Assembly: GCA_021734025.1 (NCBI GenBank)
Contig: JAIPJS010000017.1
Span: 6,165 to 70,164, forward strand
DNA length: 64,000 nucleotides
Source of the DNA: Fidelibacterota bacterium
Lineage (GTDB): Bacteria; Fidelibacterota; JAANXI01
Reading direction: 5' to 3'
Position 1 is the stretch's first letter. Each line of letters opens with the position of its first letter. Positions 2,706 to 56,925 of this stretch are shown here, piece by piece. A program made the translations under genes and the position numbers. The notes below the pieces were generated by a model that saw only the letters and a list, made by a program, of their open reading frames with translations, had not been told where the DNA came from and ran no database searches.

Positions 2706-4550
2706 ATGAAACGTTTGCGATTTCTCCTTGCCGGAATTTGGTTAACGGTTGCCGTCACGGTACTGGTTGCGAAACCAGTGGACGATCCGGCCTCGCTGGC
2801 AAACATTAAAGACGTTCGGATAACACACCTCGATCTACATTTGGATGTGGATTTCGAAAAAAAAGTCCTCCGGGGTCATGTCACGCTCAGTTTGAACAAT
2901 CTCACCGGCACGGACACGCTCATCCTGGATTCCCGGGGCCTCAAAATTCAAAAAGTCACCACTGGAGAATCCGGGCAGCCGGTGCAGTATTCTCTGGGTG
3001 AGTATGTGCTACACCTTGGGCGACCACTCCAGATACTTATTACGCCGGAGACAGAGATGGTAACCGTGTATTACGAGACCAGCGATGATGCGGGGGCGTT
3101 ACAGTGGTGTTCTCCCGAGCAGACCGCCGGCGGCTCGGCACCATTTCTGTACAGTCAATCCCAATTTATAGAGGCCCGATCCTGGATCCCGCTGCAGGAT
3201 TCGCCTGGTGTCCGGATGACTTATTCGGCGACTATCACTGTGCCTAAGGGGTATCTGGCGTTGATGGCAGCGGAAAACCGGCAAACTATTGATAGCAGCG
3301 GAATATATCACTTCGAAATGCCACAACCGATACCGTCATATTTGATGGCCCTGGCAGTCGGAAAACTTGAATATCGGGTCCTCGGCGAACGAGCGGGAGT
3401 GTATGCCGAGCCCGCCTTAGTGGAAAAGGCCGCCCGGGAATTTTCCGGAACCGGAAAGATGGTGAAAGTAGCTGAAGACTTGTACGGACCGTATCAGTGG
3501 GAGCAGTTTGATATCCTGACCCTTCCACCAAGCTTCCCGTTTGGGGGTATGGAAAACCCAAGGTTGACGTTTGCTACACCGACAATAATTACCGGCGACC
3601 GGTCACTGGTTTCGGTTATAGCACATGAACTGGCGCATGCCTGGTCCGGTAATTTGGTTACCAACGCCACCTGGAATGACTTCTGGCTAAACGAAGGGTT
3701 TACCACTTATTTTGAACGGCGGATTACCGAAGCAACAAAAGGGCGAGCGTACGCCAGCATGCTTACAAAACTTGATTACGACGGGCTCCAGGCAGCCGTA
3801 CAGAGAATAGGACCTGAAAACTCTGCGACGGCATTGAAAAGAGAGTATGGCGCCCGGGATCCGGCGGATTTTTATAACTGGATACCCTATGTCAAAGGCA
3901 TGTTTTTTCTCCGGATGCTGGAAGAGGAGTTCGGTCGGCGTCGATTTGATGCATTTCTTGAAGACTATTTTAAAACCCACAGATTTCAGTCGGTGACCAC
4001 TGAAGGTTTTTTGGAATATCTCAGGGAACACCTACTGAACAATAATTCCGCCCTGGAGCGTGAACTTTACATCCGTGAGTGGATCTATGAGCCCGGGATA
4101 CCGGCGAATTGTCCGGTGGTTTCATCGCCGGAGCTGGAAAGGGTGGCCAATAATGCTAAGCAGTATTTGGAAGAGACCGATGCCTCCGTCATTGATACCA
4201 GCGGATGGACGGCGCGTCACTGGGATTATTTTTTCAGCCGCCTTCCGGATACTCTCTCCATGGAACAGATGGCCGTACTGGATGAAGCGTTTGGTCTTAC
4301 GGAGTCCGCAAATGCAAGAATCCAGCGGGAGTGGTATCAGCTTGCAATCCACAGTGGCTATGGAAAGGCATATACGGCAATACGAGAATATTTATTGACT
4401 GTCGGCCGGATTAGCCTCATCAGACCAGTGTATCGGGCGCTCGCTTCAACAAAAGTCGGTGCAGCCCGGGCACAGCTCATTTACGAGTCTGCCAAATCCG
4501 GCTATCACCCTATGACCAGAGAGGCAATTGAACGGGTGCTAGGTCCATAG
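2706..4550 (+). CDS. M1 family zinc aminopeptidase (leukotriene A4 hydrolase-like), secreted
   Basis: Signal peptide; HEXXH-type zinc motif VIAHELAHAWSGNLVTN plus downstream NEGFTTY glutamate motif. Confidence 0.85.
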   Translation: MKRLRFLLAGIWLTVAVTVLVAKPVDDPASLANIKDVRITHLDLHLDVDFEKKVLRGHVTLSLNNLTGTDTLILDSRGLKIQKVTTGESGQPVQYSLGEYVLHLGRPLQILITPETEMVTVYYETSDDAGALQWCSPEQTAGGSAPFLYSQSQFIEARSWIPLQDSPGVRMTYSATITVPKGYLALMAAENRQTIDSSGIYHFEMPQPIPSYLMALAVGKLEYRVLGERAGVYAEPALVEKAAREFSGTGKMVKVAEDLYGPYQWEQFDILTLPPSFPFGGMENPRLTFATPTIITGDRSLVSVIAHELAHAWSGNLVTNATWNDFWLNEGFTTYFERRITEATKGRAYASMLTKLDYDGLQAAVQRIGPENSATALKREYGARDPADFYNWIPYVKGMFFLRMLEEEFGRRRFDAFLEDYFKTHRFQSVTTEGFLEYLREHLLNNNSALERELYIREWIYEPGIPANCPVVSSPELERVANNAKQYLEETDASVIDTSGWTARHWDYFFSRLPDTLSMEQMAVLDEAFGLTESANARIQREWYQLAIHSGYGKAYTAIREYLLTVGRISLIRPVYRALASTKVGAARAQLIYESAKSGYHPMTREAIERVLGP

Positions 4551-17610: not shown

Positions 17611-18630
17611 ATGATGAATACAACACAAAAATTTTTCATTACAGTTGGGGCAGGTATCGCGCTAATGCTGGTGATAATGACGACCCAGGCATGCGCGGAC
17701 GTCAGACAGACAGTGGATAAGCAGTTTTCGGTGGACGCTGGCGGAACGCTCATTATCGATAGCGACCGGGGCTCCATTGAGATAAAAACAGTGGAAGAAA
17801 ATGAAGTGAAGGTCTCGGTTATCTACGAAGCGGATGTAATGAGTGAGCAAAAGGCCGAATCGATTTTTGAAGATTTCGTGGTGGACTTTTCGCAAAAGGG
17901 GAATAATGTAATTATCTCAGGCAAAGTGGATAAAGATCTGTTAGGAATATTTGATGGGAATAATCGATTGCGGATAAAGTATAAGGTGACCGTTCCGGAA
18001 CGATTTAACGCCGAACTGGCCACCGCCGGAGGCAGCATTATCGTTGGTGATCTTCACGGGAAATTGCAGGCGAAGACGGCTGGCGGCAGCCTGGATTTTG
18101 GAAATATCACGGGGAAAGTAGACGGAAAAACCGCCGGCGGGAGTATTAAAATGCAAAGCGCAGGCGATGATGTGGACCTCAAAACGGCTGGGGGCAGCAT
18201 CACAGTCGGACCAGTCAATGGAGACGCTGAAGCCATAACCTCCGGAGGGTCGGTTCGGATTGGTGAGGTGTCGGGTACGTTGGTGGCGCATACGTCCGGT
18301 GGCAGTATTTCCATCGATGGTGTTGGCGGTTCGATCGATGCAAAAGCATCCGGTGGATCGATTCGGGCTTCGGTGACGGAACAGCCTAAAGACGATTGCC
18401 AGCTGACAACGTCCGGAGGTAGCATTTCGGTCAGTCTGCCGGAAAATATCGGTCTGAATATTAAGGCCAGGACCTACGGTGGAAAAGTCAGTACCGACCT
18501 GCCTATTACAGTGCGCGGTGAAATCTCCAAGTCCCATATTGAGGGCACTCTGAACGGTGGTGGGCCTGCGATGATACTAGAAACCTCAGGCGGGAATATC
18601 TCAATTACAAAGAGCAAAGAACTGCTCTGA
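17611..18630 (+). CDS. DUF4097-like secreted beta-strand repeat protein (putative adhesin fold)
   Basis: Signal peptide; many tandem repeats of the type TAGGSI.. / TSGGSI.. roughly every 19-20 residues. Confidence 0.75.
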   Translation: MMNTTQKFFITVGAGIALMLVIMTTQACADVRQTVDKQFSVDAGGTLIIDSDRGSIEIKTVEENEVKVSVIYEADVMSEQKAESIFEDFVVDFSQKGNNVIISGKVDKDLLGIFDGNNRLRIKYKVTVPERFNAELATAGGSIIVGDLHGKLQAKTAGGSLDFGNITGKVDGKTAGGSIKMQSAGDDVDLKTAGGSITVGPVNGDAEAITSGGSVRIGEVSGTLVAHTSGGSISIDGVGGSIDAKASGGSIRASVTEQPKDDCQLTTSGGSISVSLPENIGLNIKARTYGGKVSTDLPITVRGEISKSHIEGTLNGGGPAMILETSGGNISITKSKELL

Positions 18631-18667: not shown

Positions 18668-18698
18668 GATGCCCCGGCGCGCCGGGGCATTTTTTTTG
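18668..18698 (+). terminator. rho-independent terminator
   Basis: GC-rich perfect hairpin ATGCCCCGGCGCGCCGGGGCAT followed by a run of 8 T, 38 bp after the DUF4097 stop. Confidence 0.85.
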
Positions 18699-18766
18699 GG
18701 CTCCAGGTCTTCAACTATGGCTCTGTATTTACCTGCCAATCTGCGGACGTGTCACGAAGTGGGTTA

Positions 18767-18783
18767 ATAGAATATTATTCTAT
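18767..18783 (+). promoter_or_regulatory. palindromic operator ATAGAATATTATTCTAT (same family as the tetR operators)
   Basis: Perfect 17-bp palindrome, upstream of the DUF1761 gene. Confidence 0.45.
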
Positions 18784-18941
18784 AGAGTATCTATAATCAA
18801 TAAAACACTTTCCCTCATCAGGCAAATAGACTAAATTCATCCGTCACATCTGAATTCTGCAGAATCTTCGCACCTAACACAATCAAAAAAATACGGTTCC
18901 CGGAGTTTGGGTCCGTATAATCAACCATAAAGGAGTATGTT

Positions 18942-19340
18942 ATGGATATAAATTATCTGGCAGTCGCAGTTGCCGGTGTACTCTATTACGTAATCGGTGC
19001 CGCCTGGTATTCGCCCGTCCTGTTCGCGCGGCCGTGGATGGATGCCCTGGGTTTTACCAAAGAAGATCTGGAGGATGGCGCCGGTGCCAAGGCATATATA
19101 CTAACATTCGTCAATGCACTGATTATGGCGTTCGTGCTGGCCTGCATCGTGGAAGCCTTCGGCGCCACAACTGTGTGGGCCGGACTCCAGGGCGGTTTCT
19201 GGTGCTGGTTGGGATTTGTGGCGACGACCATGGCGACGAATTCGGTGTTCGCCGGCCGGTCGCTGAAGTTGTATGCCATCGATTCCGGCTATCATCTGGT
19301 CGGCCTGTTAGTTATGGGAGGTCTGCTGGCAATCTGGTAA
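18942..19340 (+). CDS. DUF1761-like small membrane protein
   Basis: 132 aa, four hydrophobic helices; GGAG RBS upstream. Confidence 0.65.
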   Translation: MDINYLAVAVAGVLYYVIGAAWYSPVLFARPWMDALGFTKEDLEDGAGAKAYILTFVNALIMAFVLACIVEAFGATTVWAGLQGGFWCWLGFVATTMATNSVFAGRSLKLYAIDSGYHLVGLLVMGGLLAIW

Positions 19341-19458
19341 GCATCGCATTATTGTTGATCTCAATCGCCGCTGTTATCTCCGGATGGCAGCGGTGTTTTT
19401 ATATGGGCGAAGAAATTTTGCCAATATCATTGGAGGAAATTCTATTTTATCCCTATAA

Positions 19459-19475
19459 ATAGAATTTCATTCTAT
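19459..19475 (+). promoter_or_regulatory. palindromic operator ATAGAATTTCATTCTAT
   Basis: 17-bp inverted repeat, about 70-85 bp upstream of tetR start. Confidence 0.5.
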
Positions 19476-19482
19476 AAAGTTC

Positions 19483-19511
19483 TTGCATTAAATAGAATTA
19501 TATTCTACAAT
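19483..19511 (+). promoter_or_regulatory. sigma70-like promoter TTGCAT-N17-TACAAT with operator in the spacer
   Basis: -35 TTGCAT 19483-19488, 17-nt spacer containing palindrome TAGAATTATATTCTA (19493-19507), -10 TACAAT 19506-19511. Confidence 0.5.
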
Positions 19512-19543
19512 TGGCCGTATTGGAAATTTAAGGGGGCCAAACG

Positions 19544-20206
19544 GTGGCAGGATCAAAAAAAATAGGACGACGCAAGCAACCGGACGAACGGAAAAAGGAA
19601 ATTATCGATGCGGCAAGAGATCTGTTCGCATCCCAGGGATACGACAACACTACCATGCAGCAGGTCGTGGAGAAGGCGGGCACGTCCATCGGGAATTGCT
19701 ACTTTTACTTTTCCAATAAAAAGGAATTGTACCAGGGAGTCGTAGAGTCCGTTAACGAAGAGATCTCCGGAGTTGTCGACACTGCAATTCGAGAAATGAA
19801 TTCACCGTATGAGAAACTCGCTGCTGCCGTGTACTACGGGGCGAGGACCGTGCTGGAACTTTCGGAATCGGCCGGTGCCATCCTTACTGGAACGGATCAC
19901 CCGGAGATTCGCCGAAATATTCTGAACCATTACACCCGTCGAATCTATCGGTTCCTCAAACGGAATCCTGTTATCACCGGAGACATAAATCTGGAGTTGG
20001 CCTCAGCCGCATGGCAGGGTGCGATATTCAACTTGATTGAACGACAGACGGCCGGGCAGTTCGACGGCGATGCGCAAACGGTCGCCCGATTCCTGGTGCG
20101 GTGGAACCTCCGCGCCCTCAACGCCCCGGATGCCGAAATCAACAGCGCGCTGGAGACGGTTGAGAGGCATTACCGGGAGGAATACGGGAGCGGGGATGAG
20201 GTATAG
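19544..20206 (+). CDS. TetR/AcrR family transcriptional regulator
   Basis: N-terminal TetR HTH (..KEIIDAARDLFASQGYDNTTMQQVVEKAGTSIGNCYFYFSNKKELY..); GTG start. Confidence 0.9.
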   Translation: MAGSKKIGRRKQPDERKKEIIDAARDLFASQGYDNTTMQQVVEKAGTSIGNCYFYFSNKKELYQGVVESVNEEISGVVDTAIREMNSPYEKLAAAVYYGARTVLELSESAGAILTGTDHPEIRRNILNHYTRRIYRFLKRNPVITGDINLELASAAWQGAIFNLIERQTAGQFDGDAQTVARFLVRWNLRALNAPDAEINSALETVERHYREEYGSGDEV

Positions 20207-20244
20207 GGTATAGGGAAAAAGGGAGAAAGGAAAAAGGAGAAGGG
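20206..20244 (+). repeat. G-tract module (GGGTATAGGGTATAGGG..) immediately after stop codon; four GGG tracts
   Basis: GGG at 20206, 20213, 20221, 20242; begins within the TetR stop codon; start of a purine-rich spacer. Confidence 0.6.
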
Positions 20245-20482
20245 AGAACGAAAAAAGGAAAAAAGCCGCGAAGGGGCGACAGATGAATAGCCCCGGGTTT
20301 TAACCCGGGGATTGTGTGAATCCCAAAATTCAAAACACTGAAGATGTGAAAGAAATACCTTATTGAAGAATGAAGAATGAAAATTAAAGAAGTGGAAAAA
20401 CTAAAGGAAACTGGAATTATGAGACAGGAAACCGAAAACCAGCAATCCAGAACTGGGGACACAGCATGCTTGACCGTTTTAA

Positions 20483-20550
20483 CGATAACACCATAACACA
20501 ATTACACAGTTTTAACTTAAACACTTGAACACCTGAACACACTAACACTG
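20483..20550 (+). repeat. tandem octamer NNRAACAC module upstream of start codon
   Basis: GATAACAC CATAACAC .. TTAAACAC TTGAACAC CTGAACAC ACTAACAC, ending 17 nt before the ATG at 20568. Confidence 0.6.
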
Positions 20551-20567
20551 TACAAAGGAGAATACAC

Positions 20568-21008: not shown

Positions 21009-21635
21009 ATGACATAAGCCGGTGGGAATCTTGAAACGTGCAAAATAAAAAGCGTCGACTTGAATTTTTTTCCACTTTTAACGTCAAGGTTTTGATGTCC
21101 AAGTGTTCCATGCAGGCCCGGACATGCGTTTCAAGATAAAAGTGGAATTAATTGATATAGTTCCAAAACTCCAACATCACTCTTGTTTTTAAAACTATTG
21201 CTATCTTTTAATTGCCCGCTTTTTCTTGATAAAAAACGGGCAGAAAAAATCAAGGAAACTCAGAACTCGCACTCCTATAAATATACAGGCTCTTTTGCAA
21301 CATTGGATATAGTAAATATTAACTCATTCAATTTCTACTGGGGTGCTCAAACAGCTGAGTTTCCGGTAAAAAAACTAGCAATAATTTGCTGTGCAATTTA
21401 TTTTTCGCTCTTTTAATGCCCGAGTATTCCATATACGCATCAAGACAAAAGGGCGGTTACCTGCCGTGTCAACGTTGAAAACACAATCAATACGTTGTTC
21501 ACCCTACATCCAGAAGAAATCTTCGTCTGTAAAGATGGTGGCTATCTATTTGGGCGAATTTTAATAATCCCGACGTCACCCCCTCGGAAAGCTCAGCTCC
21601 GGGAAAAGCCTCCGGTGAGGATATTGCCTAAAACA

Positions 21636-21674
21636 GTCATTCCGAGCGGAACGGAGTGGAGCCGAGGAATCTCG
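21636..21674 (+). repeat. mosaic intergenic repeat R1 (GTCATTCCGAGCG..GGAATCTCG), copy A
   Basis: Near-identical to 34989-35027; related copy at 31264-31312. Confidence 0.6.
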
Positions 21675-21759
21675 CAAATGAATTTCAGGGGTAAAATTGA
21701 TGCGCCCTTTCCTCATCGCAATAATATGTTCGTCGCGGCGAATTGCGAGGCTCTTCTTT

Positions 21760-21788
21760 GGTAGCCTTTGAATTTCATTCAAAGGCGG
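21760..21788 (+). repeat. palindromic repeat R5 (GGTAGCCTTTGAATTTCATTCAAAGGCGGA)
   Basis: Perfect hairpin CCTTTGAAT-TTC-ATTCAAAGG; second copy with 2 mismatches at 39517-39546. Confidence 0.55.
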
Positions 21789-21999
21789 ATTTTACCGGAT
21801 AAAGCCGGAAAATTTGGTTGGCGACTGTGAATTAGAATGACCCTTTCAGGGTCTCGACCCCTGAAAGGGTCGGTAGCAAATAAGGAAACTCAATGCCATT
21901 CAGTCTTTGCGGCCCAGGTGATCCGTTTGTTAAGAGGGAGAACTCGAGAAATCTAGTCTGAACACATCGGGAATGAAGTGAAAAACTAAAAAACAAGAA

Positions 22000-22221
22000 G
22001 TAGAGACGTAGCATTCAGGTTGTGTGAAAACGAAAAATCAAATAAAAAGTGAATGCTGGGCACCGGTTTGTTCTTCCAGTAGAGACGTTCCATGGAACGT
22101 CTCTACAATCAACAATATCAATGGGTTACTGTATATTATTTTGCAGAGAGGATTTTCCGGAATCAAGAGAAAAAAATCTCTTGACAAAAAATTCTCACAC
22201 AGCCTCCGTGGTACGTCTCTA
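22000..22221 (+). repeat. MITE-like structured element, copy A (about 220 bp with long terminal inverted repeats and internal hairpins)
   Basis: Ends TAGAGACGTAGCATTCAGGTTGTGTGAAAA / TTCTCACACAGCCTCCGTGGTACGTCTCTA are inverted repeats; internal perfect hairpin 22079-22106; homologous to 34393-34627. Confidence 0.55.
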
Positions 22222-22237
22222 GTCTACCATTAACTTT

Positions 22238-23119
22238 TCAGTCCTCCCGACACGTCTCCGCCACATCCTCAAATGTAAACAGCCGGGAGTGAATCGCCGG
22301 ATGATCGACGCCAAGCCGGTCGAAGCCATCGCCGCCAACGTACAGCCGGATATCATATTTCTGGCATTGCTCATAGAGATAGTTAATCTCAAACTGGATC
22401 ATATTGATATCCTGGATATATGTGCTGGAAACGTAGAGCCGGTCAATATTAACCTCGCTGAAGATCTTTTCGATGTTGAAGAGCGGGGTAATCTGTCCGC
22501 TGAACAGTACCCGATATCCGTGCTCCTCCAGAATATGATCCACCATCTTGATGGCAATGTCATGCAGCTCCGATGAGAAATTAAGGCAAAAAGCTGTTCC
22601 CTTTTTCTGCGGGGGAATCTTGATCGATCCCTGGAGCCGGATAATACTGTCCCGGATGGTCTGCGACGCAAAGTGCTCCCCGATGACGGATAATTGATCA
22701 TTCTCCCAGAGATGGCCGATCTCGTGCAGTGCTGGCGTGAGAACTTTGTCATAAATCCGGTGCAGCGGATGCTGTCCCAGGTAGAGGCCGTTCAGGATTT
22801 TCTGAATTTTTTCGCGGTTTTTGTCCAGGGCGAGGTCAAGTATTTGCCCAGACAAGTATTCATAGTCGCCTTTAATAATGTGGTAGCTCGTCTCCAGATC
22901 CGATTCGGTTTCGATGGGGAAAAGGTTGGCTTTCTGGATTTTTTCCTCATTGCGCTCAAGAAAGTCCGCCAGATGCTCCGGCAGGAATTTCCGGTGCCCC
23001 CCGGCTGTCCGGATGCACTCCAGCTTCCCGTCATCCGTCCACCGTTTGATGCTGGACACATGCACTCCAAGGATATTGCTCACCTCTTCGCTGGTAAAGT
23101 ATTTCATCTCACTCGACAC
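22238..23119 (-). CDS. MerR/excisionase-type HTH regulator with B12-binding-like C-terminal domain (LitR/CarH-like light-responsive regulator)
   Basis: N-terminal HTH (..EEVSNILGVHVSSIKRWTDDGKLECIRTAGGHRKF..); C-terminal Rossmann-like cobalamin-binding-type region with GEH and VGGDGF motifs; divergent from a carotenoid operon. Confidence 0.7.
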   Translation of the reverse strand: MSSEMKYFTSEEVSNILGVHVSSIKRWTDDGKLECIRTAGGHRKFLPEHLADFLERNEEKIQKANLFPIETESDLETSYHIIKGDYEYLSGQILDLALDKNREKIQKILNGLYLGQHPLHRIYDKVLTPALHEIGHLWENDQLSVIGEHFASQTIRDSIIRLQGSIKIPPQKKGTAFCLNFSSELHDIAIKMVDHILEEHGYRVLFSGQITPLFNIEKIFSEVNIDRLYVSSTYIQDINMIQFEINYLYEQCQKYDIRLYVGGDGFDRLGVDHPAIHSRLFTFEDVAETCRED

Positions 23120-37499: not shown

Positions 37500-37526
37500 A
37501 AGCCAGTGTTACGGTGTTATTGTGTT
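37500..37526 (-). repeat. octamer NNRAACAC module, minus-strand orientation (upstream of the M3 peptidase gene)
   Basis: Reverse complement reads CTAAAACAC AATAACAC CGTAACAC. Confidence 0.5.
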
Positions 37527-37684: not shown

Positions 37685-37758
37685 GGAGTAAGATTAGGAT
37701 TAAGAGTAACCAGCACTGTTGTTAACTTGAACACCCGAACACATTAACACTTGAAAAC
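37685..37758 (+). repeat. hexamer (TAAGAT/TAGGAT) module followed by octamer NNRAACAC module, + orientation
   Basis: GTAAGATTAGGATTAAGAG then TTGAACAC CCGAACAC ATTAACAC, about 80 bp upstream of the 37836 start; mirror-image copy 37545-37575 on the other side of the divergent region. Confidence 0.55.
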
Positions 37759-44879: not shown

Positions 44880-45030
44880 CGGCGGGTACAAGGTAATGAA
44901 AACATGTTTTTCAATTAGAAAATGTAAATCACCGAGATTGAAAAACATGATTAAGATTATGAGTAGGATATAGAATAAGAAACGCGAGACATTAATACGA
45001 TAACACATTAACACGAGCGAACTGGTTTTT

Positions 45031-49060: not shown

Positions 49061-49106
49061 CAATAACACGGGAATACCCGAACACTATAACACTATTTTC
49101 AACACT
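49061..49106 (+). repeat. octamer NNRAACAC module upstream of cmk
   Basis: AATAACAC .. CCGAACAC TATAACAC .. TTCAACAC, about 50 bp upstream of the 49157 start. Confidence 0.5.
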
Positions 49107-56817: not shown

Positions 56818-56925
56818 AACTATAACACCACAAAAAGGAAACACTATAACGCCCTCATCCGCCAGGGCTTCGGAGAGATGGTGTTGTTACTCGAACACTG
56901 GAACACCTGAACACTATACCACTTG
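56818..56925 (+). repeat. octamer NNRAACAC module upstream of the UDP-glucose dehydrogenase gene
   Basis: CTATAACAC .. GAAACAC TATAAC .. TCGAACAC TGGAACAC CTGAACAC TATACCAC. Confidence 0.5.

Follow-up and report, generated by a model that had tools for sequence, protein, structure and literature searches.

In a stretch of 64,000 nucleotides from a Fidelibacterota bacterium (contig JAIPJS010000017.1), hereafter the window, a gene for a TetR-family regulator (tetR) lies between genes for a DUF1761 protein and an SRPBCC protein, and is accompanied by three copies of one 17-bp palindrome, designated O1, O2 and O3. The locus is probably best explained as a self-repressing TetR switch, a description that includes the extensions to SRPBCC and to O1 and DUF1761. 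In the mechanism proposed here, a TetR dimer would bind the sequence ATAGAAT-N3-ATTCTAT, such that on O3 it would fill the spacer of the tetR promoter and reach into the start of the −10 element, and on O2 occupy a position just 5′ of the −35 element. Without ligand, the repressor would shut off tetR and probably also the downstream SRPBCC gene, and O1 most likely would extend this control to DUF1761, though solely in this lineage. The repressor would be released by a small ligand of hydrophobic nature, most likely resembling a lipid or an acyl-CoA.

The three palindromes, recorded in a preliminary description of this DNA, are borne out by the window sequence. Searched with the operator pattern ATAGAATNNNATTCTAT (ATAGAAT-N3-ATTCTAT), O1 and O2 agree at 14 of the 14 specified bases and O3 at 13 of 14, positions 19493–19507 given for O3 earlier being its perfect 15-bp core. 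At up to two mismatches the 64-kb window holds three copies against 0.28 expected, a number reached by none of 100 shuffled sequences, and no copies beyond O1–O3; perfect copies number two (0.00 expected), and at three mismatches the extra matches are weak or overlapping only. The centres of O2 and O3 are 33 bp apart, which places both sites on the same face of the helix, and the half-site centres within one palindrome are spaced by 10 bp, as fits one dimer on successive major grooves.

The assignment of these palindromes to the adjacent regulator draws on a scan of TetR-homologue loci, one genome per species, which returned 27 loci (205 kb) from at least seven phyla, namely from Acidobacteriota, Chloroflexota, Syntrophobacteraceae and other delta-proteobacterial groups, Armatimonadales, Latescibacterota, Dormibacterota, Spirochaetaceae, and Anaeromyxobacter (Myxococcota). 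At up to one mismatch, TAGAAT-N3-ATTCTA occurs 31 times in these 205 kb (0.5 in shuffled sequence), and 30 of the sites lie no more than 600 bp 5′ of tetR; the remaining one is found 14 bp 5′ of a metallo-beta-lactamase-fold gene that heads an operon containing tetR. The same pairing recurs in further metagenome loci (L121, L122, L125 and L127; loci are cited by their L numbers throughout), and in all distant loci the operators are situated at the head of the operon holding tetR. A matrix built from 48 distinct sites has T-A-G-A-A and T-T-C-T-A as essentially invariant half-sites, with some sites of the subfamily reading ATAGAAC-N3-GTTCTAT. On the protein side, the recognition helix AGTSIGNCYFYF (A45-G-T-S-I-G-N-C-Y-F-Y-F56) is invariant across 30 homologues; an invariant helix fits an invariant half-site and thereby supports the pairing. 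The AT-rich composition of the sites and their overlap with promoter-like hexamers are what might be expected if they were bound by another protein or were debris of a repeat element near tetR. Such an origin is highly improbable, given that the same 17-mer stands directly 5′ of orthologous tetR genes in 27 unrelated genomes, that the recognition helix does not vary, and that the window holds no further copies. The preliminary description was therefore right to take the palindromes as operators of the adjacent TetR, and this pairing is established as far as sequence comparison allows.

The position of the operators relative to the promoter is likewise shared among phyla. The usual module consists of TTGACA or a close variant, 2–4 nt, and an operator whose last bases begin a TATACT/TATAAT-like −10 element; it was recognized in about 24 lineages, among them the window, where it reads TTGCAT-TAA-O3-(TAC)AAT. 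TTGCAT matches TTGACA at three positions only, and the reality of the tetR promoter rests on comparison because a consensus scan did not list it. At the −35 position, CTTG is kept in six Marinimicrobia lineages and TTGACA is found in most distant loci, the equivalents of the −10 element in relatives being TATAAT, TATATT, TATCTT and TATACT. In the alignment of Marinimicrobia promoters, conservation is confined to O2, CTTG, O3 and the −10 element. The pair of operators, again 33 bp apart, is present in L006, L008 and L124, whose TetR proteins are 65–67% identical to that of the window, and the proximal operator only in L009/L010 (50%) and L118 (46%). It had been proposed that the third site lies inside the spacer of a TTGCAT-N17-TACAAT promoter; the promoter and its 17-nt spacer are indeed present, but the last three bases of the operator (TAC) already begin the −10 element. 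A minus-strand promoter-like match inside O3 (TTTCCA-18-TATAAT) was dismissed as a by-product of the AT-rich operator. Repression is inferred because the operators cover the region from −35 to −10, and with the fixed −35/operator/−10 module across phyla, the autoregulation of tetR suggested earlier is upheld; we regard autorepression through O2 and O3 as very likely. The operator and promoter module is conserved enough across phyla to permit regulon prediction from sequence alone.

Table 1. Features of the tetR locus, with positions in the window
Feature	Position	Strand	Remarks
DUF4097 'toastrack' protein gene	17611–18630	+	Pfam-level gene map
Terminator-like hairpin and T-run ending the DUF4097 gene	18668–18691	+	10-bp stem with 7 GC pairs, then TTTTTTGG
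Candidate DUF1761 promoter, GTGTCA-N18-TATTAT	18749–18778	+	9/12 consensus match; −10 is the centre of O1
Operator O1	18767–18783		ATAGAATATTATTCTAT; 159 bp 5′ of the DUF1761 start codon
DUF1761 gene, 132 aa	18942–19340	+	Pfam PF08570
Terminator-like hairpin and TTTTT between DUF1761 and tetR	19366–19395	+	13 pairs, 7 GC
Operator O2 (distal)	19459–19475		ATAGAATTTCATTCTAT; ends 7 nt 5′ of −35
tetR promoter −35, TTGCAT	19483–19488	+	sequence and comparison with relatives
Operator O3 (proximal)	19492–19508		ATAGAATTATATTCTAC; fills promoter spacer, 3-nt overlap with −10
tetR promoter −10, TACAAT	19506–19511	+	sequence and equivalents in relatives
tetR gene, 220 aa	19544–20206	+	GTG start; ribosome-binding site AAGGGGG
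tetR–SRPBCC spacer, 361 bp	20207–20567	+	purine-rich repeats and (AACACNNN)n array at 20487–20548
SRPBCC / Polyketide_cyc2 gene, 146 aa	20568–21008	+	Pfam PF10604
MerR/B12-binding regulator gene	22238–23119	−	carotenoid genes beyond

The gene order of related loci identifies the SRPBCC gene, absent from the preliminary description, as the conserved partner of TetR. Its product belongs to Polyketide_cyc2 (67.2 bits against a cut-off of 27.4, residues 1–142) and has weak matches only among PDB sequences (XoxI, 3cnw, E 2 × 10−4). SRPBCC adjoins tetR in nine lineages of at least three phyla: in every Marinimicrobia locus (L006, L007/8, L009/10, L118, L124 and L127/8), in a metagenome-assembled genome of the Armatimonadales (L029), which has an SRPBCC–tetR operon with the operator upstream, and in one of the Anaerolineae (L033). 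In relatives, where the two genes are predicted to be co-transcribed, the gap between them ranges from 0 to 156 bp; in L009/L010 and L118 the stop codon abuts the start codon (0 nt), and in L127 13 nt intervene. The assignment of the target is hence to be corrected, with SRPBCC as the conserved partner and DUF1761 as a lineage-specific recruit at best.

In the window itself the situation is less clear, and for this genome the chance that the tetR promoter drives SRPBCC is about even. Weighing against this is the gap of 361 bp, which exceeds those of the relatives, holds no operator, and contains low-complexity DNA together with a (AACACNNN)n array just 5′ of SRPBCC; the same array also precedes unrelated housekeeping genes, so that SRPBCC may have an expression signal of its own here. 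If so, signals in the spacer would drive SRPBCC without involvement of TetR, and the regulon would consist of tetR and DUF1761, which appears possible, although we do not favour it. The gap shows neither a plus-strand terminator nor a consensus promoter, the tetR–SRPBCC order is kept in all nine lineages, and the array is followed after 7 nt by the ribosome-binding site, so that the transcript must begin 5′ of the array and include it.

Beyond SRPBCC, the cargo co-transcribed with tetR varies among the operons of the subfamily. Small membrane proteins of the DUF4260 family are encoded in L015, L017, L018, L022, L122 and L125, as assigned by Pfam, and in L034, as assigned by eye from the sequence; other small membrane proteins, which bear no family name, were found in L020 and L036. 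A short-chain dehydrogenase combined with a CMD-family protein occurs in L021, L023, L037 and L121 (Pfam), with the same layout in L027 and L028, an outer-membrane efflux protein in L025 and L035, and an acyl-CoA dehydrogenase in L022, while in L013 a divergent thiolase gene lies beside tetR. Small membrane proteins are typical cargo of the subfamily, which lends support to the assignment of DUF1761 to O1.

The DUF1761 protein matches its family at 109.2 bits (cut-off 31) over residues 6–129 of 132. It is hydrophobic, and the AlphaFold2 (AF2) model, very confident with a predicted local distance difference test (pLDDT) score of 95, has four long and two short helices, on which grounds the protein is taken as membrane-spanning; a Foldseek comparison of the model with the PDB gave no significant fold match (best E 2.7), and a literature search on DUF1761 and DUF4260 found no relevant functional description. 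Its designation as a target of TetR, put forward in the preliminary description, stands in part. In its favour, O1 is perfect and faces DUF1761 only: it is situated in a terminator-bounded intergenic region of 310 bp, the terminator-like hairpin at the end of the DUF4097 gene shields the O1/DUF1761 unit against read-through from upstream, and DUF1761 is the sole gene downstream. O1 moreover covers the −10 element of the sole sigma-70-like candidate (GTGTCA-N18-TATTAT) and lies just 5′ of an alternative −10, TATAAT, at 18792–18797.

Several observations weigh against control of DUF1761 by O1. The candidate promoters around O1 are weak, and the promoter scan was not enriched over shuffled sequence (5 found, 3.2 expected), so that the promoter is a candidate only. 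The canonical module is lacking, as O1 has no TTGACA-like −35 element at the module position and the would-be −10 element reads TATAGA, and a separate TATAAT nearer to DUF1761 (18916–18921) carries no operator. DUF1761 also precedes tetR in L009/10, L118 and L124; among these loci, the upstream sequence is on the contig in L009 and L118, and no operator is found 5′ of DUF1761 in L009/L010 or L118 (best match with four mismatches), nor in L038. Furthermore, in 80 metagenome DUF1761 loci (316 kb), retrieved with an alignment of eight sequences, there was no site at up to one mismatch and no TetR of this subfamily, by which a family-wide link of DUF1761 to this TetR was ruled out.

These findings, along with the restriction of operators in distant loci to the head of the tetR operon, could be accommodated if the regulon comprised tetR and SRPBCC, with O1 binding the repressor without controlling DUF1761, which would be a mere syntenic neighbour; O1 would in that event have arisen recently or serve an auxiliary role, acting for instance as a decoy or in looping. 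We consider this rather unlikely, since a 14/14 site in an intergenic region of 310 bp is unexpected by chance, O1 could act on no other gene and overlaps the only sigma-70-like candidate promoters 5′ of DUF1761, and small membrane proteins are typical cargo of the subfamily. Control of DUF1761 by O1 is accordingly favoured, if only slightly, and O1 is best regarded as an extension of the regulon peculiar to this lineage.

Other candidates in the region upstream of DUF1761 were tried and rejected. For a riboswitch or leader RNA, there was no Rfam match at E ≤ 1 in 18730–18941 and the folding z-score was −0.40 relative to shuffled sequence; at gathering score, Rfam has no match in the window. 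A hidden small gene near O1 was dismissed, as only open reading frames of 21–36 aa are present, none of them credible. In L006, a perfect TAGAATTTAATTCTA at 3365–3379 occupies the position equivalent to O1; it was not accepted as a conserved O1, being located within the coding sequence (codons V-E-F-N-S-I) of a different, 123-aa membrane open reading frame. This frame, conserved, with three membrane helices and no Pfam family, lies between DUF4097 or DUF1761 and tetR in L006 and L124. The site is probably a codon coincidence, because it is inside coding sequence and degenerate in L124, where the orthologous sequence (~237–253) has two mismatches. The otherwise unconserved upstream regions of DUF1761 have CACATCTGAATTC in common at window 18855–18867 and L009 ~3357–3369, of which the region in L038 keeps only CACAT.

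The regulator itself is a clear member of the TetR family. TetR_N (PF00440) is matched at 58.2 bits (cut-off 24) over residues 20–64, and the AF2 model (pLDDT 90) displays the all-helical two-domain TetR fold, in which the C-terminal domain serves ligand binding and dimerisation, with 10–11 helices. A Foldseek search of the PDB gave 549 matches at E ≤ 0.001, the top 50 all being TetR-family proteins at probability 1.0, with Bacillus FadR, M. tuberculosis FasR and RolR as the best neighbours (template modelling score 0.64–0.69, 17–24% identity). The palindromic operator at the regulated promoter or promoters, another trait of the family, is evident from the site statistics and the co-occurrence across phyla. 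Homologues numbered 90, the nearest 67% identical, and a profile search of 1.84 billion representative proteins returned 95 clusters (at 50% identity) with E ≤ 1e-30, as compared with 134,417 TetR-like clusters at E ≤ 1e-3. The subfamily is thus small, distinct and spread across phyla; in the literature searched for the motif with TetR and for TetR with SRPBCC, nothing relevant was found, and neither the subfamily nor its operator was described.

With respect to the ligand, SRPBCC proteins as a family bind hydrophobic ligands, and the structures of the neighbours FadR and FasR were both solved with long-chain acyl-CoA. From these fold neighbours, the SRPBCC partner and the occasional beta-oxidation neighbours, the inducer is most likely lipid-like or acyl-CoA-like, a weak inference, as the ligand class depends on a fold similarity at 18–20% identity, and among the NCBIfam equivalogs and Pfam TetR_C domains none passes. 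More speculatively, and with a low probability, the subfamily might be a conserved sensor of membrane-lipid or another hydrophobic signal, with the cargo (SRPBCC, DUF1761, DUF4260) as one response. If true, this would provide a first regulatory handle on DUF1761 and DUF4260. The recurrent coupling of the subfamily to orphan small membrane proteins and hydrophobic-ligand binders suggests a common signal that can be tested.

The archetype of the family is the TetR of Tn10 with its operators tetO1 and tetO2, with which the window system shares the N-terminal TetR_N helix-turn-helix, the two tandem palindromic operators over the regulator's own promoter and, as expected by analogy, negative autoregulation with release by a ligand. 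The layout had been called classic in the preliminary description, and in this respect it has to be revised: DUF1761, tetR and SRPBCC are arranged in tandem, all on the plus strand, unlike the divergent tetR/tetA, and two operators precede tetR whereas the third stands apart, 5′ of DUF1761. The operator sequence is unrelated to that of Tn10, and the cargo is SRPBCC and perhaps the DUF1761 membrane protein instead of an efflux pump. The nearest folds of the AF2 model are those of Bacillus FadR (YsiA) and M. tuberculosis FasR, and some orthologues of the window TetR adjoin thiolase or acyl-CoA dehydrogenase genes, in keeping with this likeness. On the other hand, the window locus holds no beta-oxidation genes, the identity is 18–20%, and the NCBIfam scores place the protein outside both families, at 34.7 bits against a cut-off of 200 for FadR (NF053878) and at 44 bits against 330 for FasR; the operator also differs from what we take to be the FadR box. 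KstR is a TetR-family repressor of lipid-related genes, and its actinobacterial operator is, as we assume and use as a lead only, TnnAACnnGTTnnA, an AT-rich palindrome TAGAAC...GTTCTA, which is approached by the subfamily sites with the ATAGAAC half-site. Between the half-sites lie 3 nt in the window and 2 in KstR, phyla and regulon differ, and the KstR equivalog (NF033703) is matched at 34.9 bits against a cut-off of 280, outside its membership. In summary of these comparisons, the system is an autoregulated TetR repressor with tandem operators, of a routine kind.

The array 5′ of SRPBCC belongs to a group of AACACNNN arrays of 3–8 units with a strict 8-nt period, each pointing to the next gene. 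Besides the one in the tetR–SRPBCC spacer (plus strand), the window holds arrays at 37506–37526 (−), 37730–37758 (+), 44994–45014 (+), 49065–49105 (+) and 56824–56922 (+), and three units at up to two mismatches are matched 12 times, with 0.04 expected. The genes that follow are unrelated, encoding SRPBCC, an M3 peptidase, a DcuC transporter, ScpA/ScpB, cytidylate kinase with ribosomal protein S1, and UDP-glucose dehydrogenase. Arrays are also present in relatives (L007 787–847, L124 1503–1531), and the one 5′ of SRPBCC orthologues is kept in the closest relatives only. No Rfam family matched the arrays. They might represent either an upstream promoter element or leader sequence, rich in C and poor in G, that enhances translation or serves to load Rho. 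Straight after the tetR stop codon, at 20200–20265 and 20364–20381, there are purine-rich repeats made up of GGTATAG (twice), about seven copies of GGAAAAA, and TGAAGAA (2.6 copies), and GGATTAAGA-like purine-rich stretches also precede other AACAC (AACACNNN) arrays. On the opposite strand of the same spacer, 20264–20310 (−) forms two hairpins ending in a terminator-like T-run; it scores 28.2 bits with Rfam Acido-Lenti-1, below the gathering score of 37, with E 1.4e-4 in a search of 401 bp.

Downstream of SRPBCC, the stretch up to the MerR/B12 regulator (21009–22237, ~1.2 kb) is without a credible gene and contains perfect hairpin palindromes such as GTAGAGACGTTCCATGGAACGTCTCTAC; it has no counterpart in L006, L007, L009 and L118, and L006 has a DUF1614 gene there. 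The minus-strand regulator is CarH/LitR-like, combining MerR helix-turn-helix and B12-binding domains, and its gene is divergent from those for a lycopene cyclase and a phytoene-desaturase-like protein in the window as well as in L001, L006 and L009. Its place beside tetR–SRPBCC is kept in Marinimicrobia loci with TetR down to 50% identity, and the SRPBCC/TetR pair may possibly be linked in function to a carotenoid cluster under light control.

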